A stretch of DNA of 64,000 nt from Sulfurospirillaceae bacterium (GTDB lineage Bacteria; Campylobacterota; Campylobacteria; Campylobacterales; Sulfurospirillaceae). Made by a program: the position numbers and the translations under genes. Location of the stretch: contig JAWVXD010000005.1 of NCBI GenBank assembly GCA_033723415.1, positions 32,001 through 96,000 of the forward strand, written 5' to 3'. Below, piece after piece: positions 42,564 through 53,857 of the stretch; within the stretch, counting starts at the first letter, position 1, and every line of letters starts with the position of its first letter. The notes beneath the pieces were generated by a model. The model worked only from the letters and a program-made list of their open reading frames with translations, did not search any database and had not been told where the DNA came from.

Positions 42564-43271
42564 TTACTTCTCCATAAGACCTTTGGAAATATCATTTAAT
42601 ATATGGGTATAATCAATATACTTGATATCTTTTTTGTGTTGTTCTAAAAGCCTACGTGAGATTTTAAAATATTTCACTGACTCAGCATGATTTTGAAAAT
42701 CTTCTTTCAATATCTTAGCCATGTAATAATTTGCGTAAAAATTTTCTTTATTATGTAAAAGTACTTTTTTGACTTCGCTTATACAGCTATATATTTGTCC
42801 ATTTTGTCTGTATGCAAGTGCCAGTTTCAATCTTATCTTATCTTGATGAGGATTGATCTTCAGACTTTTACCGTACCCGATAATAGCTTCATCTAAAATA
42901 CTCAATTCATAATACCCATCAGCCAATTTATTCCAATAAATAAAATTATTTGTTTTTAATGCTTCTTTCCTGAGTTTTGTAACCTGCAGAGCAAAAGGTA
43001 TGATTTTTGCTATCTCGCTGTTTTTAACGATACTTGGATCTATCCCATATGCATCTGTCAGAATTTCAAAACCTTTTGTCAATTTACCCTTTTTGAGATA
43101 TATGTTTGCCAACTGTAACAAACACTTTACATTCTCCGGCTCTATGTCCAATATCTTTTCTATTTGAGCCCTTGCAACTTCGGTATTAAACCTTCTAGCT
43201 GTGCATATAGGATAGTTTGACGAATACAAAAAAATCGAAAATAAACATAATATAAAAAAGTTTTTCAACAA
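42564..43271 (-). CDS. Exported TPR-repeat protein
   Basis: Signal-like N-terminus; TPR-like helices (LANIYLKKG, LADGYYEL, LALAYRQNG). Confidence 0.7.
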   Translation of the reverse strand: MLKNFFILCLFSIFLYSSNYPICTARRFNTEVARAQIEKILDIEPENVKCLLQLANIYLKKGKLTKGFEILTDAYGIDPSIVKNSEIAKIIPFALQVTKLRKEALKTNNFIYWNKLADGYYELSILDEAIIGYGKSLKINPHQDKIRLKLALAYRQNGQIYSCISEVKKVLLHNKENFYANYYMAKILKEDFQNHAESVKYFKISRRLLEQHKKDIKYIDYTHILNDISKGLMEK

Positions 43272-43438
43272 GACAATTCCCTAAATAAAGTATGTATAAC
43301 GTGATGTTATCTTAAAGAGGATTAAAAAAAACATTTAAATAAATAAACGCCAACTAATCTAAGAAAAAACAAAGTTTTACAAGAAAATTTAAAGATATAC
43401 ATGATAAAATTATGACCAAATTAAAAAAAAGGAAACGT

Positions 43439-43735
43439 ATGAAAAAGATAATTATGGCTACAGCTCTTGTTTTCGCAGCAAGCTCAGCAGTAATGGCAGC
43501 AGACACAGATGTTAATGTTGCAACGTGTAAAGGTTGTCATGGACAAAACTTCGAGAAAAAAGCACTTGGTGTATCAAAAATTGTAAAAGATATGACTCAT
43601 GCAGAAATTGCAACTGCACTTAAAGGATATAAAGCTGGTACTTTCGGTGGCGCTATGAAAGGTGTTATGAAAGGTCAAGTATCTAAATATTCTGATGACG
43701 ATTTAGTAGAATTTTCAAAAACAGTAGGTAAGTAA
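43439..43735 (+). CDS. Monohaem cytochrome c553-like protein
   Basis: Signal peptide, CKGCH, ALKGYK, GVMKGQ distal Met; AAGGA SD before ATG 43439. Confidence 0.92.
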   Translation: MKKIIMATALVFAASSAVMAADTDVNVATCKGCHGQNFEKKALGVSKIVKDMTHAEIATALKGYKAGTFGGAMKGVMKGQVSKYSDDDLVEFSKTVGK

Positions 43736-43743
43736 TTTACTTT

Positions 43744-43763
43744 GGCGGGTATACCCGCCTTTT
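43744..43763 (+). terminator. Intrinsic terminator
   Basis: GGCGGG-TATA-CCCGCC followed by TTTT. Confidence 0.75.
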
Positions 43764-43819
43764 GCATACTTTGTCTTTGCCCAAAAGCAATTCTCCACAT
43801 TTTGCAAGGAGATACAAAA

Positions 43820-44116
43820 ATGAAAACTCTCATTTTTTTATTTTTTATTTTTACAAGTACTTCACTTTTTTCATATGATGGCGCTGTTATTTTTAACAAA
43901 TGTGCAAAATGTCATGGCATAGACGGGAAACATAAAGCTTTCGGTAAATCTGCAAAGATAGCCGGTGCACCGGCAAAACAAACTATTGCAGTATTAGAAA
44001 TATTTAAAAATATGTCTAGAGTAGATAAATTTGCAAAAGTCATGAATAAAGAAGTTTCAAAACTAAACGAAGAGCAGATAAAAGCAGTAGCAGAATATAT
44101 CTCAAAACTAAAATAG
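43820..44116 (+). CDS. Second monohaem class I cytochrome c
   Basis: AAGGAG SD, signal peptide MKTLIF..., CAKCH, KVM distal Met, IKAVAEYI. Confidence 0.88.
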   Translation: MKTLIFLFFIFTSTSLFSYDGAVIFNKCAKCHGIDGKHKAFGKSAKIAGAPAKQTIAVLEIFKNMSRVDKFAKVMNKEVSKLNEEQIKAVAEYISKLK

Positions 44117-44117
44117 T

Positions 44118-44354
44118 CTAATCAGGCGGTCCATATCCTTTTTCTTTTGCCTTTCTTTCTTTTATATTCTTTTTTCTTTCTTCCAACATAACAGCATCCT
44201 GCAAAGATTCCTCATCATCATATAAAGCTCCATCCAGAAATTTATTTTGATCATCAAATTGACCTGTTCTTAAACCCCAAATAAGTGCCCAAAGTCCAAA
44301 AGCTCCAAGCGTTATAGATGCCCCAAGCATCATGGCTATAACCCAACTGTTCAT
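44118..44354 (-). CDS. ccoS: cbb3-type oxidase assembly protein CcoS/FixS
   Basis: TM helix then WGLRTGQFDD; downstream of ccoI. Confidence 0.9.
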   Translation of the reverse strand: MNSWVIAMMLGASITLGAFGLWALIWGLRTGQFDDQNKFLDGALYDDEESLQDAVMLEERKKNIKERKAKEKGYGPPD

Positions 44355-44355
44355 A

Positions 44356-44436
44356 TTAACTGTCTCCTTTAACTTGGGACAGGTTCCAAGTTAAATTCCT
44401 CTCACTAAAGCTTCGCCCTTGGCGAGAATTTTTCAT
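44356..44436 (-). CDS. Repeat-encoded mini-ORF, 26 aa (MKNSRQGRSFSERNLTWNLSQVKGDS)
   Basis: Strong SD GGAGGAG upstream; stop 1 nt before ccoS ATG. Confidence 0.55.
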   Translation of the reverse strand: MKNSRQGRSFSERNLTWNLSQVKGDS

Positions 44437-44447
44437 TAACTGTCTCC
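44356..44447 (-). repeat. 80-bp structured intergenic repeat, copy C, plus duplicated SD/stop/start end (GGAGACAGTTAA)
   Basis: TGTCTCC recurs at 44361 and 44441 (80-bp period); 61/81 identical to copy at 50769-50849. Confidence 0.9.
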
Positions 44448-44468
44448 TCCAACATTTAGTATGATCAT
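44436..44468 (-). CDS. Linker mini-ORF, 10 aa (MIILNVGGDS)
   Basis: TAATG overlap with ccoI stop and TAATG overlap with the next mini-ORF. Confidence 0.35.
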   Translation of the reverse strand: MIILNVGGDS

Positions 44469-46885
44469 TATTTTCTTTTTGGTGTCTTAATCATATTGAT
44501 TCTCATAGAATTTCCTACAACTATCAATGAACTAAGTGACATTGATAAAGCTGCAAACAGCGGAATCACATATCCTGCCATAGCAAGTGGTATCGTTATA
44601 GCATTATACAAAAATGATAACAATAAATTTTCTTTAACGATACGAAATGTCCTCTTTGAGATCAAGAATGAGTAATACAGTGACTCAAATGAATTATTTA
44701 TAAGTACGACATCACTTACATTTAGAGCTATATCAGCCCCACTACCCATAGTTATAGCTATCTCACTTTTTGAAAGTGCCAAAGCATCATTGATCCCATC
44801 TCCTACCATGACTACTTTTTTACCGTTCTTTCTAGCCTCTTCTATTATATTAGCTTTCTCTTGAGGCAGTAAAGAAGCATAAAATTTTTCTATTCCTACT
44901 CTATTGCATATTTTTTTTGCCACTTCCTTATTGTCTCCTGTCAGCATAATCACTTCTACACCTAAGTGTTTGATATTTTCTATGCTCCAAGCAGCATCTT
45001 CTCTTGGTATATCTTCTAATGCAAAAACTGCCACTACTTCATTATTGATTGCAAAGTAGTATTGACTAAAATCTTCAAAACTGCTATTACATTTTATACC
45101 ATTTTCAGATAATAAACTCATGCTGCCACCATAAAGTGTAGCTCCTTCATAAGTGGCTTTTATGCCTTTTGCTTCGATATTTTTGATGTTTTGCAAGTCT
45201 TTTATTTTAAATTTTTCTTCCTCAAAATATTCTGCTATCGCTTTACTTATAGGATGAGTAGAATTTTTACTTAGAGAATATAAAAGCGATCTGTCAAAAT
45301 CTTTTAAATATACTTTATCCACAATTTTGGGTTTCCCGGAAGTTATAGTACCGGTCTTATCCAACATCAATACGTCACATTTCGCCATAGTTTCTAGAAA
45401 TGAAGCTTCTTTAAATAGGATACCTGATTTAGCAGCCATCCCAAGACCAACAAGCGTAGAAACTGGAGTTGCCAATCCAAGAGCGCAAGGACATGCTATG
45501 ACTATAACAGAAATTGCAACTATTAAAGAGCGCTCAAAAGGTTCTCCGCCAAAATACCAAAATAGTAAAGTTCCAATAGAGAGTAATAAAATAATAGTAG
45601 AGAAGTAACCAGATACGATATTTGCTAGCTTTTCAATTTGTGGTTTCTTATTCATAGAATCTTCTAATAACGAAGTTATTTTACTCAATACCGAAGAATT
45701 GACATCACATATCGCACGATATCTAAAAACAGTATCTAGCGCGATATATCCACTTAGTATCTTATCTCCTGTCTTCAAAAAAACAGGTGTAGATTCTCCT
45801 GTCAAGCTTGAAGTATCAAATGAAGATTCACCGTCAATAATAACGCCGTCAATAACAATTTTTTCACCGGCCTTTACTTCTAATATATCTCCTGTTTTAA
45901 CTTCTTCTACACCTAACAATATCTTTTCATCGTTTTTTATGACCAATACTTCCGTAGGGACTGAGCTGTTAAAACTGTCCAACCTGTCTACAGCCTTTTT
46001 CTTTGATAAAACTTCTAAATATTTTCCTGCAAATACAAAAGTTATGATCATAGTCACAGAATCAAAATAAACTTCTCCTTTTTGAGAAAACATCGCATAT
46101 AAAGAGTATATATAAGCTGAAGTTGCACCTGTTGCAACTAGAATATCCATATTTACATATTTGTTCTTTATCCCGTAATATGCACCTTTAAAATACACCG
46201 AACCCGTGTAAAAAAGAGTTGGTGTTGCTAGTACGAATTCTGCAAAATTCAAGATGTTTTTTATTTCGAGTTTCATGCCTGTAAAATAACCTGCATATTG
46301 AGCTATTGCGATCCACATGATATTCATAGTAGTGAAAACGCCGACCAATAATCTAGCGTAATAATCACGTCTAGTACTATTTGCCTGAATCTCCTGCATG
46401 CTAGGATCATAAGGGTATGCATTGTAGCCGATGTTCCTGATAGTAAGTATGATTTCTGAGAGTTTTATAGTGTCCGGATCCCAAACGATTTTTGCTTTAT
46501 TGTTTGTTTGATTAATGCTTGCTTCTACTATACCATCTTTTTGATGCAATACTTTTTCGTTAAGCCAGACACAAGCGGAGCAGTGAATTCCTTCTATAAT
46601 GAGATAAATCTCATAAAATCCGTCTTTATTTTTTATATATTTTTTGTTAAAACCTTCTAGATCAAATTTTTCAACTTCACCAAGATCTTCTTTTGGTGGT
46701 TCAAGTTCAGTATTTCCGACTCTTTTATAAAAATCATCCAAACCTTCACTTTTCAGAAGATGGAAAACTCCTTGACAGCCTTTGCAGCAAAAATATTTTG
46801 TTGAATCTTCAAAACTGCTGTCTTTAATCAATACCTTTTCGTCAAATTCAAGATGACAATGGTCACAGCGTCTTTTTTGCATCAA
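44468..46885 (-). CDS. ccoI: P1B-type Cu ATPase CcoI/FixI
   Basis: CDHC..FCCKGC N-terminus, GIHCSAC HMA, TGES, CPCALG, DKTGT, GDGIND; adjacent ccoS. Confidence 0.9.
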   Translation of the reverse strand: MMQKRRCDHCHLEFDEKVLIKDSSFEDSTKYFCCKGCQGVFHLLKSEGLDDFYKRVGNTELEPPKEDLGEVEKFDLEGFNKKYIKNKDGFYEIYLIIEGIHCSACVWLNEKVLHQKDGIVEASINQTNNKAKIVWDPDTIKLSEIILTIRNIGYNAYPYDPSMQEIQANSTRRDYYARLLVGVFTTMNIMWIAIAQYAGYFTGMKLEIKNILNFAEFVLATPTLFYTGSVYFKGAYYGIKNKYVNMDILVATGATSAYIYSLYAMFSQKGEVYFDSVTMIITFVFAGKYLEVLSKKKAVDRLDSFNSSVPTEVLVIKNDEKILLGVEEVKTGDILEVKAGEKIVIDGVIIDGESSFDTSSLTGESTPVFLKTGDKILSGYIALDTVFRYRAICDVNSSVLSKITSLLEDSMNKKPQIEKLANIVSGYFSTIILLLSIGTLLFWYFGGEPFERSLIVAISVIVIACPCALGLATPVSTLVGLGMAAKSGILFKEASFLETMAKCDVLMLDKTGTITSGKPKIVDKVYLKDFDRSLLYSLSKNSTHPISKAIAEYFEEEKFKIKDLQNIKNIEAKGIKATYEGATLYGGSMSLLSENGIKCNSSFEDFSQYYFAINNEVVAVFALEDIPREDAAWSIENIKHLGVEVIMLTGDNKEVAKKICNRVGIEKFYASLLPQEKANIIEEARKNGKKVVMVGDGINDALALSKSEIAITMGSGADIALNVSDVVLINNSFESLYYSFLISKRTFRIVKENLLLSFLYNAITIPLAMAGYVIPLFAALSMSLSSLIVVGNSMRINMIKTPKRK

Positions 46886-46995
46886 ACCTATACCTTATTA
46901 ACAAAAACTATATGCGTAATTATATCGTGACTTTCTAAATTATAACTGACCTTATGGCATCAAAAATTCTACCTACTCTAAACTATTGAAACTTC

Positions 46996-47024
46996 TTGAC
47001 AAAAAACCTACATTATTATAAAAT
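46996..47024 (+). promoter_or_regulatory. sigma70 promoter of rho
   Basis: TTGACA-N17-TAAAAT. Confidence 0.7.
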
Positions 47025-47156
47025 TACGGTTACATTAGCAAGAGCACTTCGCTCTTATAAAGTCACTACAAAAAGCAACTATACTTCTCATTTTAGTTCA
47101 ACGGACCAACAGGAGAGGTATGCTTCAAAAAACATTAACTACAAAAAGAAGGCAAA

Positions 47157-48494
47157 ATGAATAATAATTCTTCCTCAGAGAACCAAAAACCAAAAAGCAA
47201 TGGAAATTATCGTAAATCAAGAACACATGTACCTGTTGAAGGTTACAAAATAGAAAACTTAAGAAGTATGGAACTTGATAAACTTGTAGAAATAGCAACT
47301 GAACTCAATGTTGAAAATCCAAATGAACTAAAAAGACAAGATTTAATGTTTGAGATATTGAAATCTCAAGTCAATAAAGGTGGTTTCATCCTATTTACAG
47401 GGATATTAGAGATAACTCACGAAGGATATGGCTTTTTACGAACGACTGACACAAATTTTAGTGACAGTGCAAATGATGCATACGTAAGTGCTACACAAGT
47501 AAAGAAATTCGCATTAAGAAACGGCGATATAGTGACAGGACAAGTAAGACAACCAAAAGATCAAGAAAGATACTATGCTCTTTTAAAGATTGAAGCTATC
47601 AACTATCTTCCTATGCAAGACAGTAGAAAAAGACCTCTTTTTGAGAATCTAACACCTGTTTATCCTACAGAATGCATCAAAATGGAATATGACAAGATGA
47701 AGATCACCGGCAGAGTGTTAGATTTATTTACCCCTATAGGAAAAGGTCAGAGAGGACTTATCGTAGCACCTCCTAGAAGCGGGAAAACAGAGCTTATGAA
47801 AGAGTTGGCAAACGGGATCTCTTTTAATCATCCGGAAATCGAACTCATAGTTCTCTTGGTAGATGAAAGACCGGAAGAAGTTACAGATATGCAAAGAAGC
47901 GTAAATGGAGAAGTATATAGCTCAACTTTTGATATGCCGGCCTCTAATCATGTAAGAGTTGCAAACCTAGTCATAGAAAAAGCAAAAAGAAGAGTTGAGA
48001 TGGGCAAAGACGTAGTAATACTTTTAGACTCAATCACCAGACTCGCTCGTGCATACAATACCGTAACACCTTCAAGCGGGAAAATACTAAGCGGAGGTGT
48101 GGACGCAAATGCCCTACATAAACCAAAAAGATTTTTCGGTGCAGCAAGAAACATAGAATTCGGAGGAAGTTTAACTATCATCTCAACAGCACTTATAGAA
48201 ACAGGCAGCAGAATGGATGAAGTTATTTTTGAAGAGTTTAAAGGAACAGGAAATAGTGAAATCGTGTTGGATAGAAATATTTCTGATCGAAGAATTTATC
48301 CAGCTATAAATATAATGAAATCTGCAACAAGAAAAGAAGAGTTGCTAGTTAATCCTGAAACATTACAAAAGATATGGGCTATAAGATCGGCTATCTCTCA
48401 AATGGAAGATATAGAAGCTCTCAAATTTTTATACTCTAAAATGTTGAAAACAGATAATAATGCAGAATTGCTTTCAACCATAAACGAAAGTTAG
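47157..48494 (+). CDS. rho: Transcription termination factor Rho
   Basis: [39 protein letters not shown]. Confidence 0.98.
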
Positions 48495-48560
48495 AAAAAA
48501 TAATTTTTTTATAATTTGTTTTAAGATATACTGTATATTATTACTAAAAGAGGTTGAAAA

Positions 48561-50201
48561 TTGTCACAAGTACTTGCATTAAAATATCGTCCTAAATCAT
48601 TTGAGCAACTTATTGGTCAAAACTCTGTCACGCAAACTCTATCTCTTGCTCTAAATCAAGACAGGTTATCTCATGCTTATCTTTTTTCGGGGCTACGAGG
48701 GAGCGGTAAAACTTCAACTGCAAGAATTTTTTCAAAAGCTCTTATTTGTGAAAAAGGGCCAAATTCAACACCATGTGATGTATGTGAAAATTGTCAGATG
48801 GCAAATGAAAACAGACACATCGACATAGTAGAAATGGATGCTGCAAGTAGCAGAAAGATTGATGATATCAGAGAACTGATTGAGCATACTAAATACAAAC
48901 CCAATATAGCAAGATATAAAATATTTATAATAGATGAAGTTCATATGCTCACAAAAGAGGCTTTTAATGCCCTTTTAAAGACTTTGGAAGAGCCTCCTTC
49001 TTATATTAAATTTATATTAGCTACGACAGATCCTATGAAACTTCCACCAACTATACTATCAAGAACTCAACATTTTAGATTTAAGCAAATTGGCGAAAAA
49101 GATGTTGTAAATCACTTATCACATCTGCTAAATTTAGAAAATATAAGTTATGAAATAGAGGCTTTGCATATGTTAAGCCGTGCAGGAAATGGCTCGCTAA
49201 GAGATACACTGACCTTGCTAGATCAAGCTATTATTTTTTCTAAATCTGATATAACTGCACCTAGTCTGGCTTCTATGCTAGGTCTTCTAGACCCTAAGCA
49301 ATTAGAATACATATTTGATGCTATTTTGTCTAAAGATAAAGACAAGATTCTATCAATTTTAAGAGAGTTAGAAAACTATGAGTGTGAAGTTGTCTTAGAT
49401 GAGCTTATAGCATATCTTAAAACAGCATTTTTTGAGCAAGACAGTAGATTTTCTATCTTGCTGAGTGAAAGATTTTTTAGAATTTTAAGTGAAGCAAAAA
49501 ACTTGCTGTATATAAATGCCGACAATATTTTTATACTCTCTTTAGTATTTTTCAAGATGATAGAAGCAACAAATATAAAAACTATAGATGATATGATAGA
49601 AGAGTTAGAAAATGAAAAATTTAGACATCCTATGCAAAAAGAAGAATCGACCATAACATCAGATATTCCCGTTGCCGCTACACCAAAAGAAGAAAAATCT
49701 GATATAACGCCTCAAAATCATTTTGCCAGACTGATAACTTTATTGAAAGATCGAAATCTAGATACAGGAAACTGTTTTGAAAGATATATAACATTTATCA
49801 GTTTTGAAGATGAGACTCTGACTTTAAGCTCTAATGCAAGCGAAGATTGCAAAAAAATGCTAAGACATGCGACTAGCATCATAAAGCACTTTGTTCAAAA
49901 TGTTTATGGTATAAATACTACCATCAAAATGGTACAAGGAACTCCAAAAGAAGATCTGTCTGAAGAGCAGCATGAACCTCAAGAACAATTTGAAAGTTCA
50001 CAAGAACAGACTCTGCCTCCAAAGGAAGATGAGAATAACACACTCAACAATCAAGAAGATAATTCAGGAAGCTGTGTTGCAGGTCATGTCATGAGCGGAA
50101 AAGAAGAGATAGATGCAAAAGAAATTTTGAATAATCCCTTTATAAAAAAAGCAACCGAACTGTTTGATCCTAAGAAAATAGAGATCCATCCAAAGATCTA
50201 G
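48561..50201 (+). CDS. dnaX: DNA polymerase III subunit gamma/tau
   Basis: LALKYRP, GLRGSGKT, C4 Zn site, IIDEVHML, NALLKTLEEPP. Confidence 0.96.
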   Translation: MSQVLALKYRPKSFEQLIGQNSVTQTLSLALNQDRLSHAYLFSGLRGSGKTSTARIFSKALICEKGPNSTPCDVCENCQMANENRHIDIVEMDAASSRKIDDIRELIEHTKYKPNIARYKIFIIDEVHMLTKEAFNALLKTLEEPPSYIKFILATTDPMKLPPTILSRTQHFRFKQIGEKDVVNHLSHLLNLENISYEIEALHMLSRAGNGSLRDTLTLLDQAIIFSKSDITAPSLASMLGLLDPKQLEYIFDAILSKDKDKILSILRELENYECEVVLDELIAYLKTAFFEQDSRFSILLSERFFRILSEAKNLLYINADNIFILSLVFFKMIEATNIKTIDDMIEELENEKFRHPMQKEESTITSDIPVAATPKEEKSDITPQNHFARLITLLKDRNLDTGNCFERYITFISFEDETLTLSSNASEDCKKMLRHATSIIKHFVQNVYGINTTIKMVQGTPKEDLSEEQHEPQEQFESSQEQTLPPKEDENNTLNNQEDNSGSCVAGHVMSGKEEIDAKEILNNPFIKKATELFDPKKIEIHPKI

Positions 50202-50202
50202 A

Positions 50203-50769
50203 TCATACTTTTACTCTTAAATCCATAGCTTTTGACAAAGATAAGATATCTACATTTTCAAGATGAACGCCCGTAGGAACACCTTGTGCAATTTTCGTAA
50301 AAGATAAAGACATATCTTTAAGATTATCTTCTATATGCATAATCACAACATCATTCGAAAGTGATGGTGTCAATGCAAATATAATTTCTTTAACTCCATC
50401 TTTAGCTATAGTTTTTAGATGATCTATACTATCCGGTTCTACATTTTCTAATACAAAATATTTTCCGTCATATAAGTTATACTCTTCTAATACCAATATA
50501 TCTTTTGCATTTTCTACTATGCAAATCTTTGTATTGTCACGTTTTTCATCCAGACATATCTCACATATCTCGTTTTCACTTAATGCCCCGCAATTTTGAC
50601 ATTTTTTGATTGATTTGACAGCAATTTCTATTGAATTTGCAAGCTTCATAGCCAAGAAAGTATCATTTAATACTAAGTGATACGCATATCTCATAGCCGA
50701 CTTTTTGCCAACAGTCGGTATAGATTGAAATGCTTCTACTAGATTATTGAATTTTTCTAATTGTTTCAT
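50203..50769 (-). CDS. recR: Recombination mediator RecR
   Basis: PTVGKKSA HhH, CQNC..CEIC Zn finger, Toprim, IAQGVPTG. Confidence 0.95.
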   Translation of the reverse strand: MKQLEKFNNLVEAFQSIPTVGKKSAMRYAYHLVLNDTFLAMKLANSIEIAVKSIKKCQNCGALSENEICEICLDEKRDNTKICIVENAKDILVLEEYNLYDGKYFVLENVEPDSIDHLKTIAKDGVKEIIFALTPSLSNDVVIMHIEDNLKDMSLSFTKIAQGVPTGVHLENVDILSLSKAMDLRVKV

Positions 50770-50849
50770 TAACTGTCTCCTTTAGTTTGGAACTCGTCCC
50801 GAACTAAATTCCTCGCACTAAAGCTAGCGCTTTGCGCAGAGTGTTTCAT
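50769..50849 (-). CDS. Repeat-encoded mini-ORF, 26 aa (MKHSAQSASFSARNLVRDEFQTKGDS)
   Basis: AAAGGAG SD upstream; TAATG overlap with recR start. Confidence 0.55.
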   Translation of the reverse strand: MKHSAQSASFSARNLVRDEFQTKGDS

Positions 50850-50904
50850 TGTCTGTCTCCTTTAACTTGGAACTCGTCCAAAGCTAAATTTCTCGTACTA
50901 AAGC
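50769..50904 (-). repeat. Tandem copies (B complete, A 3' part) of the 80-bp structured repeat
   Basis: CTGTCTCCTTTA recurs at 50773 and 50853 (80-bp period); matches 44356-44436. Confidence 0.9.
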
Positions 50905-50983
50905 ACAAAACAGAAGTTTCTGTATCGCTATTTTCTATAATTTGAAAAAGCGCAGGAGTTGAATTTTTGTCTATTTTTTTCAT
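50846..50983 (-). CDS. Mini-ORF, 45 aa, ending in the repeat (MKKIDKNSTPALFQIIENSDTETSVLCFSTRNLALDEFQVKGDRQ)
   Basis: ATGA overlap with kinase stop and ATGA overlap with the next mini-ORF. Confidence 0.45.
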   Translation of the reverse strand: MKKIDKNSTPALFQIIENSDTETSVLCFSTRNLALDEFQVKGDRQ

Positions 50984-52212
50984 GTAAGTATCTTAAATTG
51001 GTGTATTTTTATTTCTTCAGAGTAACTGTACTCTAGAGAAAAATCATGTAATTCTACTATATTTTTAACAATATAAAGACCCAAACCTAAGCCTTTGTCC
51101 ATATTACCGGAAACAAATGGCTTGAAGTATTCTTCTATGGCTAGAGAAAGTTTTTCTCCTCTATTTTCAAAAATTATGGCATTTTTTTCGCTTCTTACCT
51201 TTACTTGGTGATCAGGACTGTGCTTTATAGCATTATCCATCAAATTTTTCATAGCCAAAGCAAGTAGTTCAAAATCTGCCCACAGTATCATTTCATCCTG
51301 AACATCTACTATAACATGTTCATCTCTTTTTTCATTTTCCAACATCAACAGATCAATTCCATGTTCTAGAATATAAACAAGATTATATCTTTGAAAATTT
51401 GGAGTGTAGCTTTTGGACACAAGCTGTTCAATTTTGGCAAATTCGCTTATAAGAATGTCTAGTCTCTCAAATATCTTGATCAATCTGTTTTTAGATTTTT
51501 CATCTTCCAGCATTTCGGAAACGATTCTGCCTTTACCTATGGGTGTCTTTAACTCATGCATAATAGTTCTCAAAAAAAGTTGCCTTGAAGCCATCAGGGC
51601 AGATATTTTCTTCACAGCTCGATCAAATTCATTTGCAACCTCAGCTATCTCGTCATCTTGATCACTTTTACAATCAACACTCATATTTCCACTTGCAAAC
51701 TCCCGTATTTTCAAACTTAGTTCTTTAAGCGGTGAGATACTTCGCAAGATTGAAGCATACATCAATATAAAGATAATCAAGGCAATCGCAAAACCAATCC
51801 AAAGCTGCTTATCACTACTTTTTATATTACTAGTGCTTTCTAGCAATATATTAGTCATGATATTTTCGATAAAAAGATAGTATTTGTCGTTGTATTCTAT
51901 AGATGTAAATCTATTTAGATTTATGGATTTTCTGTAAATTATAGTTCCTTGATCTAAAACTGCTTGCTTTAGATTGGGATTATCAACCTTTTTGAGATCA
52001 AAAGTATGAAAATACTCTTCTATATTTCGTGGAGTATAGTTATTGCGATAGAGAGTAAAAAGATAATTTATAGATTGAAATTGTCTTTGTTTCATACGTT
52101 CAGTGTTGATTTCTTCTTGATATTTCAGCAAAAGGATAAAAAACATACCAAGGAGAACAAGAGAAAAAACAAAAATGATGGTAATTTTGGTGCTTAGTGA
52201 TTGTTCTTTCAT
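50980..52212 (-). CDS. racS: Sensor histidine kinase (RacS/ArsS-like)
   Basis: 2 TM, HAMP, IMHELKTPI H-box, NLMDNAIK, GLGLGLYIV; dnaJ/RR/HK/recR arrangement as for C. jejuni racRS. Confidence 0.75.
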   Translation of the reverse strand: MKEQSLSTKITIIFVFSLVLLGMFFILLLKYQEEINTERMKQRQFQSINYLFTLYRNNYTPRNIEEYFHTFDLKKVDNPNLKQAVLDQGTIIYRKSINLNRFTSIEYNDKYYLFIENIMTNILLESTSNIKSSDKQLWIGFAIALIIFILMYASILRSISPLKELSLKIREFASGNMSVDCKSDQDDEIAEVANEFDRAVKKISALMASRQLFLRTIMHELKTPIGKGRIVSEMLEDEKSKNRLIKIFERLDILISEFAKIEQLVSKSYTPNFQRYNLVYILEHGIDLLMLENEKRDEHVIVDVQDEMILWADFELLALAMKNLMDNAIKHSPDHQVKVRSEKNAIIFENRGEKLSLAIEEYFKPFVSGNMDKGLGLGLYIVKNIVELHDFSLEYSYSEEIKIHQFKILT

Positions 52213-52889
52213 CCTACTAACTTATAACCAATCCCTCGCACAGAGTGTATATATATAGGCTTTTTCGAGCTATCTCCGATCTTGCTTCGGAGTCTTCCCA
52301 TGATAACATCTAAGCTTTTACTTCCTTTATCTTTAAGTGAGCTGCAATTGTAAACCAGCTGCTCTCTTGATATAGAAAAACCGTTTTGTTTTATCATGTA
52401 TGATAATATTTCATATTCTGCAGGTGTTAAATTCAATGCTTCTTCTTTGAGGAATATCTGATGCCTTTTCTCATCAACTCTAAAATCACTATCTACATTT
52501 GATCCTACAGTTTCTGTTGTATTTGTTGATTTTTTATATCGTCTGATTAAACTTTGAATTCTCGCATACATCTCTTTTGGATCATAGGGTTTTGGCAGAT
52601 AATCATCAGCCCCTATCTGTAGTCCTATAACTTTGTCACTTATGTCGCTTCTTGCAGAAGAGATGATGATAGGGATATCATATTTTTCTACAACTTCCTT
52701 GCATACTTCCAATCCATCAATACCAGGCAATGTCAAATCCAATATTAAAAGATCATATTTTTTGATTCCGGCACTCAAACCAAGATAAGGATCTTCATAA
52801 TTTGTTATTTTAATATTGTATTTCGCTAAATATTCACTCAAAATCTCCGCAAATTCCGTGTCGTCTTCAATCATAAGAACATTTATCAT
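52209..52889 (-). CDS. racR: OmpR-family response regulator (RacR-like)
   Basis: MINVLMIEDD, LDLTLPG, GADDYLPKPY, SVRGIGY; ATG 52889 (ORF track starts 52916). Confidence 0.78.
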   Translation of the reverse strand: MINVLMIEDDTEFAEILSEYLAKYNIKITNYEDPYLGLSAGIKKYDLLILDLTLPGIDGLEVCKEVVEKYDIPIIISSARSDISDKVIGLQIGADDYLPKPYDPKEMYARIQSLIRRYKKSTNTTETVGSNVDSDFRVDEKRHQIFLKEEALNLTPAEYEILSYMIKQNGFSISREQLVYNCSSLKDKGSKSLDVIMGRLRSKIGDSSKKPIYIHSVRGIGYKLVG

Positions 52890-53308: not shown

Positions 53309-53857
53309 TTATTTTGTTAGATTACTCTTTAATTCAGATATCTGCTCTTTTGTTAGGATTTTAAAAGCCTTTTCCATATAATCTGCTTTGATCTTTAACA
53401 TATGTTTATGCATATTGTCGGCATACTTTTCAAAAGCTTGTTTATCAAAACCTTTATCGCTTATAAATGCCGCCATCTTGCCTTGGCGATTGTATCCCAT
53501 CATTTTTTTCATATTTAGTCTCATCTCATCTCGGAGAATTGAAAGTTTGTATCTTTGTTCATTATTTAAATTCAATCCTGCGAACATACGCATACCTCTG
53601 GCATTGTGCATTCCCATCATCGGACTATTACCACGCATCATGCCTCTCATCTGCATATTTGGACAATTCATCATACCCTGACCTTGCATCATCATGCCTC
53701 TTGATTGCATACCTTGTCCCTGCATCATGCCTCTCATTGGCATATTTGGACAATTCATCATGCCAGGCCCGTAAGCAGGGGTATTCATAGTGCCTGCATA
53801 TAAGCTAGCGGACATAGCGCCGGCTATAGCCATTGTGATCATAAACTTCATCTTCAT
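53309..53857 (-). CDS. Spy/CpxP (LTxxQ)-family periplasmic protein with Met/Gly-rich N-terminus
   Basis: Signal peptide; LNLNNEQ and ILTKEQ motifs; duplicated GMMNCPNM.MRGMM. Confidence 0.82.
   Translation of the reverse strand: MKMKFMITMAIAGAMSASLYAGTMNTPAYGPGMMNCPNMPMRGMMQGQGMQSRGMMMQGQGMMNCPNMQMRGMMRGNSPMMGMHNARGMRMFAGLNLNNEQRYKLSILRDEMRLNMKKMMGYNRQGKMAAFISDKGFDKQAFEKYADNMHKHMLKIKADYMEKAFKILTKEQISELKSNLTK

Follow-up and report, generated by a model that had tools for sequence, protein, structure and literature searches.

The DNA analysed here (the window) is a stretch of 64,000 nucleotides (nt) from a Sulfurospirillaceae bacterium, whose genome is called G000 below; other G numbers denote relatives, and positions given without a contig label are those of the window. 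On its minus strand, the gene for an ArsS-family sensor histidine kinase is followed by two mini open reading frames (ORFs) of 45 and 26 amino acids (aa), and these by recR. The mini-ORFs run through two tandem copies (A and B) of a repeat of about 80 nt, and a third copy lies between ccoI and ccoS on the same strand (Table 1). An earlier, sequence-only reading of this DNA had described a chain of overlapping stop and start codons from the kinase to recR, and re-reading of the junctions at all three overlaps bears it out. The kinase TGA overlaps the ATG of the 45-aa ORF (ACATGAAA), the TGA of this ORF overlaps the ATG of the 26-aa ORF (CAATGAAA), and the TAA of the latter shares one base with the ATG of recR (TTAATGAAA). 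No promoter- or terminator-like site was found when the minus strand of 50600-51100 was scanned. NCBIfam checks were limited to recR, ccoS, the kinase, its response regulator and the P-type ATPase gene upstream of ccoS.

Read 5′ to 3′, the unit consists of a conserved UCU, a first hairpin (H1; 4-6 pairs with an A-rich loop), a linker (AGCUUUAGUGAGAGGAAUUU), a second hairpin (H2; 10-13 pairs), AAAGGAGA, 5-7 bases, and an ATG. The linker, about 20 nt long, is near-invariant and is also the best conserved part among the copies of G000. Linker subfamilies exist (GCUUCAGUCGCGAGGAAUUU in G003, G008 and G009; GCACAAAAGUGCGAGGAAUUU in G005) and have the common core GAGGAAUUU. The element supplies its own start codon and a strong Shine-Dalgarno sequence (SD), AAAGGAG, complementary to CCUCCUUU at the 16S 3′ end of relatives, which reads GGATCACCTCCTTT; the G000 assembly itself is without a 16S gene. 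The ccoS copy has a further SD-spacer-ATG at its 5′ edge (44434-44450).

Copy B and the ccoS copy are identical at 61 of 81 positions with no indels, and GCTTTAGT, AATTTA and TAAAGGAGACAG are common to all three copies of the window. Hairpin 1 is CGCC-AAG-GGCG in the ccoS copy and GCGC-AAA-GCGC in copy B, with three pairs altered on both sides, and hairpin 2 takes the forms TTTAACT/AGTTAAA (ccoS copy), TTTAGTT/AACTAAA (copy B) and TTTAGCT/AGTTAAA (copy A), all as had been claimed. One correction is needed: copy A is only 50/81 identical to copy B, and its first hairpin differs, having a longer stem (ACAGA-AACT-TCTGT). Elsewhere in G000, the copies in the argF leader (G000:C5:215060-215186) and the rpoZ leader (G000:C3:327645-327752) carry some 20-40 extra nt between H1 and the linker. 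This segment starts with CTTTC(T/C)CACAGAGAGTG and is 42 nt long at argF; judged by eye, its 5′ part might pair with the linker sequence GUGAGAGG.

The recR loci of 25 genomes were compared, and only G000, G010 and G006 carry the element there. In G013, the closest complete relative (RecR 85% identical), and in G001, the kinase gene ends in ...ATAACATGAAAC..., its TGA overlapping the ATG of recR with no element between them. Since the closest relative retains this empty overlap, the recR copies of G000 represent a lineage-specific insertion. In G000 the ATGA at the end of the kinase gene persists but now opens the 45-aa ORF. The first 25 bases of that ORF match the first 23 of recR at 21 positions, an alignment score reached by 3 of 2000 shuffles, or by 7 of 2000 when ATGAAA was kept. 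Directly before the intact recR start behind copy B stands AAAGGAGACAGTTAATGAAACA; this 22-mer recurs, altered at two positions, 5′ of copy B, which is thus flanked by a 20-of-22 repeat.

Filled and empty sites were also seen at other genes. The ccoI and ccoS genes overlap at ATGA in most relatives; in G006, one copy sits here between perfect 19-nt direct repeats (AAAGGAGAAATTAATATGA) that are 80 nt apart, the first comprising the end of ccoI and the start of a 27-aa ORF, and the second the end of that ORF and the start of ccoS. The clpX site is empty in G001, G003 and G008 (stop codon, 0-1 bases, ATG), holds one copy in G005 and two in G000. At argF, nine of 20 family genomes are filled and 11 empty, and none of eight loci outside the family shows a match. 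The empty sites at recR, clpX, ccoS and argF all have stop and start codons that overlap or lie a few bases apart. Across 128 copies, the 5′ flank matches the copy's own 3′ SD-to-ATG segment better than the segments of others (mean 8.17 versus 7.20, a value reached by none of 2000 permutations), part of this signal coming from tandem members. The earlier reading had missed that the element is an insertion associated with start codons and bordered by direct repeats of the ribosome-binding segment, and also that a decayed duplicate of the recR start opens the 45-aa ORF. The targets are ribosome-binding sites and start codons, where the element has the orientation of the gene, and its insertion often leaves the SD-spacer-ATG segment as a direct repeat on its two sides.

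Table 1. Features of the kinase-recR and ccoI-ccoS regions of the window, and relay chains of G000
Feature	Position	Strand	Details
ArsS-family sensor histidine kinase gene	50980..52212	-	NF038389, 424 bits; TGA overlaps ATG of 45-aa ORF at ACATGAAA
45-aa mini-ORF	50846..50983	-	begins at ancestral recR start position and runs through copy A
Decayed duplicate of first 23 nt of recR	50959..50983	-	ATGAAAAAAATAGACAAAAATTCAA vs ATGAAACAATTAGAAAAATTCAA, local alignment, 21 matches
Repeat copy A	50844..50923	-	covariance-model match G000:C5:82844-82923, 60.5 bits; H1 50910-50923, linker 50886-50904, H2 50861-50888, SD to ATG 50847-50863
26-aa mini-ORF inside copy B	50769..50849	-	ATG overlaps stop of 45-aa ORF, TAA overlaps recR ATG
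Repeat copy B	50764..50849	-	covariance-model match G000:C5:82764-82849, 93 bits; H1 50827-50837, linker 50806-50825, H2 50781-50808, SD to recR ATG 50767-50783
recR	50203..50769	-	TIGR00615, 179 bits
ccoI (P-type ATPase gene upstream of ccoS)	44468-46885	-
Third repeat copy, between ccoI and ccoS	44351..44436	-	covariance-model match, 96.5 bits; H1 44414-44424, linker 44393-44412, H2 44368-44395, SD to ATG 44352-44370
ccoS	44118-44354	-	TIGR00847
Chain at recR, G000			ATGA, 45 aa, ATGA, 26 aa, TAATG
Chain at clpX, G000			ATGA, 54 aa through two copies, ATGA
Chain at ureC, G000			ATGA, 53 aa through two copies, ATGA
Chain at nuoC, G000			TAATG, 38 aa, TAATG
Chain at argF, G000			TAAgATG, 41 aa, ATGA

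A profile made from the three window copies found 24 sites at E ≤ 1e-3 in the genome searched (2.43 Mb, 34.5% G+C), and an iterated profile found 30 at E ≤ 1e-4 and 37 at E ≤ 1e-2. A covariance model of 85 positions and 14 pairs, built from 27 G000 copies, gave 43 sites at E ≤ 0.01. An ORF of at least 40 aa starts within 30 nt of the 3′ end in 32 of the 37 profile matches, and four of the remaining five are upstream partners in tandem pairs, which occur at recR, clpX, ureC, dnaE and C5:213958-214120. Since 32 of the 43 model matches lie no more than 100 nt downstream of a co-oriented ORF (≥90 aa), the element is mostly an intercistronic operon feature. The genes behind the copies are unrelated in function, as had been proposed from the window: an arsC-like gene, ccoS, recR, ureC, rbfA, clpX, argB, argF and argG, and further nuoC, parB, dnaE, lysS, infA, rplK, rplL, rpoZ, secY and others. 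These names were assigned by reading the translated proteins, most without a family-model check. At G000:C6:64969-65056, two degenerate copies stand back to back on opposite strands, so that either copy, when transcribed, would yield RNA antisense to the other's linker.

RNAalifold, applied to the 27 G000 copies, predicted both H1 and H2, with compensatory changes at nine of 14 pairs. Copies from other genomes (foreign copies) were gathered by an exact linker pattern and then fitted to the model, the stems lying outside the pattern. Among 93 distinct foreign copies, 95.6% of cells hold standard pairs, compared with 65.1% when partners were shuffled and 49-58% when partners were slid by 1-3 columns. 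Double-sided changes occur at 12 of 14 pairs (394 cells), and none of 500 shuffles reached any of these measures. Both hairpins covary strongly in the G000 copies and in the 93 foreign ones, which upholds the earlier claim of selection on nucleic-acid structure. In the foreign copies, G-U/U-G combinations exceed A-C/C-A (68 versus 15), and the folding strand is therefore the sense strand, in agreement with a transcript, sense single-stranded DNA being possible as well. Single-sequence folds leave the GGAG of the SD unpaired, directly 3′ of H2. The two-state switch that had been suggested, with CTTTAGT pairing alternatively with (A/G)(C/T)TAAAG, did not survive this analysis: only the four invariant pairs CUUU:AAAG form generally, and the other three form in 22-49% of copies, with no double changes and no better than shuffles. 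Pairing of the conserved 5′ YUCU with the linker's AGAG was also considered, and proved uninformative (90.5% pairable, no double changes, slid controls 87-89%).

Conserved secondary structure with covariation is what riboswitch-type leaders would show. The element shares with riboswitches and protein-binding leaders the arrangement of covarying stems around a conserved single-stranded core, directly 5′ of a start codon. It differs from these and from regulon leaders in that its gene set is incoherent, its sites turn over between species, it forms tandem arrays, and its SD is not sequestered.

An intercistronic element for RNA processing or stability could have a similar design, with an endonuclease cutting in the A/U-rich linker, H1 guarding the upstream 3′ end, and H2 guarding the downstream 5′ end and presenting the SD. 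The order of a hairpin, a single-stranded linker and a hairpin directly before an unpaired SD agrees with this, as do the folding of the sense strand and the location of most copies between co-oriented genes. Sites of RNase Y or RNase J, however, are not known to need as much as 20 nt of invariant sequence; insertion at start codons and the flanking repeats would be left unexplained, and a copy that lies in RNase P RNA (described below) would risk cleavage of an essential RNA. A processing role is for these reasons rather improbable.

Covariance-model searches of 41 relatives gave matches in all 24 genomes of the same family (2-89 each), and one match each in three of 16 genomes from other families of the order. 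Across the phylum, eight of 151 evenly sampled genomes have the element, with none among the 53 and 60 genomes of the two largest families. An exact linker scan, one genome per species, found at least 121 loci; titles among the matches listed were Sulfurospirillum, Sulfurimonas, Sulfurovum, Arcobacter and unclassified Campylobacterales, and Sulfurospirillum arcachonense DSM 9755 was one of those with several copies. Exact-pattern matches outside Campylobacterota (Capilliphycus and Filifactor) were dismissed as chance, both failing the covariance model. G013 has four-copy tandem arrays at C1:526765-527071 and C1:602336-602647, with a period of 74-77 nt and an appearance like that of a variable number tandem repeat (VNTR).

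No Rfam 15 family matched the element at E ≤ 10 in window positions 43000-52500, and ten diverse copies gave none at E ≤ 1, the one listed match being on the opposite strand and far under threshold. The linker sequence was not found in the literature searched, and topical literature searches returned nothing relevant. The motif strings are also absent from the text of the supplements of a paper analysing an Arcobacter genome, the figures of which are not searchable. Because there is no match in Rfam 15 and nothing in the literature searched, this appears to be an undescribed RNA/repeat family.

For the most part, genomes do not share sites. The downstream gene has a G000 counterpart for 78 foreign copies, and in 13 of these cases the counterpart also carries a copy; the sites shared between G000 and other genomes are argF, parB, secY, infA, atpA, prpB and one other. 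These numbers bear on the possibility that the element serves chiefly to bind a factor acting in trans, which might be CsrA, some other RNA-binding regulator or a small RNA. The linker and two GGA-containing purine tracts flanking H2 would form the putative site, the approximately 40 genes per genome a regulon, and mobility and the relay of mini-ORFs would be secondary. A linker that is best conserved while the stems change with compensation has the pattern of a recognised sequence between structural helices. H2 has a GGA motif on each side (GAGAGGAA and AAAGGAGA, some 30 nt from each other), the module is retained in the untranslated RNase P RNA, and pairing of the 42-nt insertion at argF with GUGAGAGG (by eye) could make access to the linker switchable. 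Set against this, the downstream genes have no common function, the sites are mostly unconserved between genomes, members of a single family have anything from 2 to 89 copies, and no antisense partner with up to four mismatches to the linker was found outside elements. CsrA prefers GGA motifs in hairpin loops, and those of the element are outside the loops; the linker also decays in some of the RNase P copies (G020 and G017). A regulon built on such a factor is possible, but we consider it unlikely.

A full copy is present at the tip of helix P12 in the RNase P RNA gene of five relatives from three genera (G015, G020, G023, G016 and G008). The insert has decayed in G017, and 17 other parsed relatives have a short P12. 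Three genomes of one genus (g3) have two copies each, one before argF and one at the P12 tip, and their RNase P RNA genes score 258-263 bits with RF00010; the rnpB of G000 (325 nt) has no copy. The P12 inserts align end to end, the SD being decayed to AAGAAGA and the tail, AAGAAGACAGTTTAATGG, resembling a decayed SD-spacer-ATG. In the insert of G008, H2 is changed and pairing is retained. The insert-free P12 of G013 reads ...AAAAAGGTATGG..., an SD-plus-ATG look-alike. We take the P12 copies as support for sequence-directed insertion at sites resembling ribosome-binding sites, and they signal that the module in its folded form is tolerated, or kept, in an RNA that is not translated.

A co-occurring Y1/HUH transposase had been suggested as something to look for, and the Y1 family (PF01797) does not track the element. 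Y1_Tnp is present in nine of 16 genomes of other families, seven of these nine being without the element, and was not found in the carriers G018, G021 and G025; it is present in G000 and most relatives. The only Y1 match of G000 is at C1:746-1036, in a 228-aa open frame, and the nearest model match is at C1:111582. The only reverse-transcriptase match (C1:80814-81374, in a 579-aa open frame) has no copy nearby. Neither enzyme follows presence or copy number of the element across genomes, and both were rejected as movers. Partners acting in trans were also sought. No non-element match to the linker was found at two or fewer mismatches on either strand, and those at 3-4 mismatches look like chance. 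A boxA-like antitermination site was rejected, since nothing resembling the linker is present in the rrn leaders of G013 and G015.

The wide variation in copy number, the patchy gain and loss among close relatives and the arrays of up to four copies in G013 would all suit a purely selfish DNA element of the REP or palindrome type, mobilised in single-stranded form by a hairpin-recognising Y1 (HUH) transposase, with the RNA features and mini-ORFs incidental. Y1_Tnp genes do occur in G000 and most relatives, and G-T wobble would be tolerable in single-stranded DNA also. We nevertheless regard such an element as very improbable, since the presence of Y1_Tnp does not follow it across genomes, no model match is near the only Y1 gene of G000, and the reverse transcriptase does not track copy number either. 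The stem sequences vary freely between copies, which argues against sequence-specific recognition of the hairpins; gene starts, and not the strand, dictate how and where copies lie; and compensatory changes between orthologous copies can be seen by eye at argF and at P12 of RNase P RNA. A more speculative idea, which we hold to be unlikely, is that H1, linker and H2 form a self-spreading 'portable ribosome-binding-site cassette'. It would copy itself to SD-plus-ATG sites with no transposase of its own, for instance through template switching between the duplicated ribosome-binding sites (direct repeats) that arise at each insertion, and its linker would dock a global RNA-binding factor.

The mini-ORF relay seen at recR recurs at four other junctions of G000 (Table 1), and at recR and ccoS in G006, where the recR chain is of 52 aa and runs through two copies. 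SD-led mini-ORFs that end at or near the gene start are found before the arsC-like gene, parB, ccoS and at C5:214036. At the tandem pair C5:213958-214120, the second copy has a +1-frame ORF that shares the reading frame of the downstream gene, giving a possible N-terminal extension of 26 aa (189 versus 163 aa) and an annotation trap. We read the relay as a likely consequence of insertion behind an existing start codon, and it may be retained where the neighbouring genes were translationally coupled. That ribosomes use it is inferred.

The conserved part of the element has stops (UAG, UAA) in one frame only. Among 95 foreign copies, frame 0 is open in 61, frame +1 in 50 and frame +2 in one. An ATG near the 5′ edge is present in 40, and 26 have a spanning ORF, leaving 69 without. 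Of the spanning ORFs, 12 give a peptide with ...SFSxRN... (frame 0) and 14 an unrelated one with ...ALVRGI... (+1). The sequence-only reading had proposed joint selection on structure and on an open frame with the peptide consensus FS.RNL.....Q.KGD. The structural part stands, by covariation, and the conserved peptide does not, given the two frames and the 69 of 95 copies that have no spanning ORF; for the same reasons, the peptide is not the selected product. That the 45- and 26-aa ORFs encode a functional small-protein family (FSxRNLx5QxKGD) is close to refuted. About 12 of 27 aligned G000 copies begin with ATG in that frame, and several linker changes look synonymous by eye (for example TTT/TTC, AGC/AGT and AGG/AGA), but only the 12 foreign copies noted above have that ORF, covariation in H2 rewrites the C-terminal half of the peptide, and neither ORF has a Pfam or NCBIfam match.

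The best explanation, to which we give a probability of roughly 60%, is that copies A and B are tandem copies of a dispersed, start-codon-seeking intercistronic repeat of about 80 nt, which inserted at the kinase/recR ATGA overlap, and that translational coupling was kept through the mini-ORFs. Insertion at this overlap would have left the old recR start, which now opens the 45-aa ORF; because that start survives, ribosomes leaving the kinase gene could pass to recR. They would travel by termination and reinitiation through copies A and B (ATGA, ATGA, TAATG), so that coupling and protection from polarity would be preserved over 214 inserted bases, as in a natural 'bicistronic design' leader. 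The mini-ORFs would be by-products of the place of insertion, not peptide genes. Both hairpins are presumably maintained because selection acts on the transcript of the sense strand; the last bases of H2 are the three A's that immediately precede the unpaired GGAG, and H2 might insulate or stabilise the ribosome-binding site.

Several observations weigh against this explanation. The near-invariant linker is not accounted for by coupling, and neither is retention of the module in the untranslated RNase P RNA of three genera. The relay is missing from most copies (69 of the 95 foreign ones, and most G000 junctions too), and coupling therefore cannot be the general function of the element. An open chain is itself weak evidence of selection, because the consensus leaves two frames open. 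No mobilising enzyme was found among the two compared across genomes (Y1 transposase and reverse transcriptase). Duplication of the 5′ coding bases of the gene was rejected as a general feature, being seen at recR only; one of 30 loci was above the 95th percentile of cross-comparisons. In the foreign alignment, linker invariance is partly by construction, and the pair counts lean towards the model.

The closest known parallel in behaviour is with mycobacterial interspersed repetitive units (MIRUs). In a review, MIRUs are described as inserting at start codons, with an internal ORF coupled at a -4 spacing, and as likely to spare expression of the target gene; units from a two-component-system operon are attributed to Supply et al. 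1997 (PMC12548453). Both repeats are short, often in tandem and located between co-oriented genes, and both are apparently mobile, at start codons, with target-gene expression thought to be spared (PMC12548453). MIRUs were first seen in a two-component-system operon, and the element at recR follows a sensor kinase; in both, an ORF internal to the repeat is tied to its neighbours by overlapping stop and start codons, here in a minority of copies (PMC12548453). Bicistronic-design leaders are also mentioned there (PMC12548453). The element differs from MIRUs in its phylum, its covarying two-hairpin fold, its near-invariant 20-nt linker and its own SD; most copies are without a spanning ORF, two frames are used, and there are copies in RNase P RNA. 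By its behaviour it is a structured variant of the MIRU kind, and it is not assigned to the mycobacterial MIRU sequence family.

In a bicistronic-design leader, the SD of the target gene lies inside a short ORF that is itself preceded by an SD, and the stop of this ORF overlaps the target start (TAATG or ATGA); arriving ribosomes unfold local structure and then reinitiate. The leader-ORF copies described here share the layout of these synthetic leaders. The element differs in being natural and repeated, with a leader ORF in a minority of copies. There is also a general likeness to the REP/BIME, ERIC/IRU, Correia and RUP/BOX repeats, which are small, structured, transcribed intergenic repeats with copy numbers that vary between relatives. 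Some repeats of these types affect mRNA stability or processing. They occur in both orientations or at gene 3′ ends and are not known to bring an SD and start codon, and REPs usually flank a RAYT (Y1) transposase gene. In contrast, the element is co-oriented with its gene and abuts the start codon, and no link to RAYT was found.

One further repeat of the window is unrelated to the element: a 43-nt direct repeat with three partly overlapping copies at 53635-53764 (GCATCATGCCTCTCAT...), 70-93% identical.

If the explanation given above is correct, the solution seen in MIRUs, a repeat at the start codon with expression preserved via coupled mini-ORFs, would have arisen in a second phylum, and the conserved RNA fold with its built-in strong SD would place the element beside engineered bicistronic leaders as their counterpart in nature. 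Annotation will go wrong at the mini-ORFs and at N-terminal extensions that are in frame, and the tandem arrays are likely VNTR markers. The invariant linker offers a handle for finding an RNA-binding or mobilising factor. The cassette idea, if true, would join dozens of housekeeping genes and RNase P RNA in one post-transcriptional circuit of environmental Campylobacterota.

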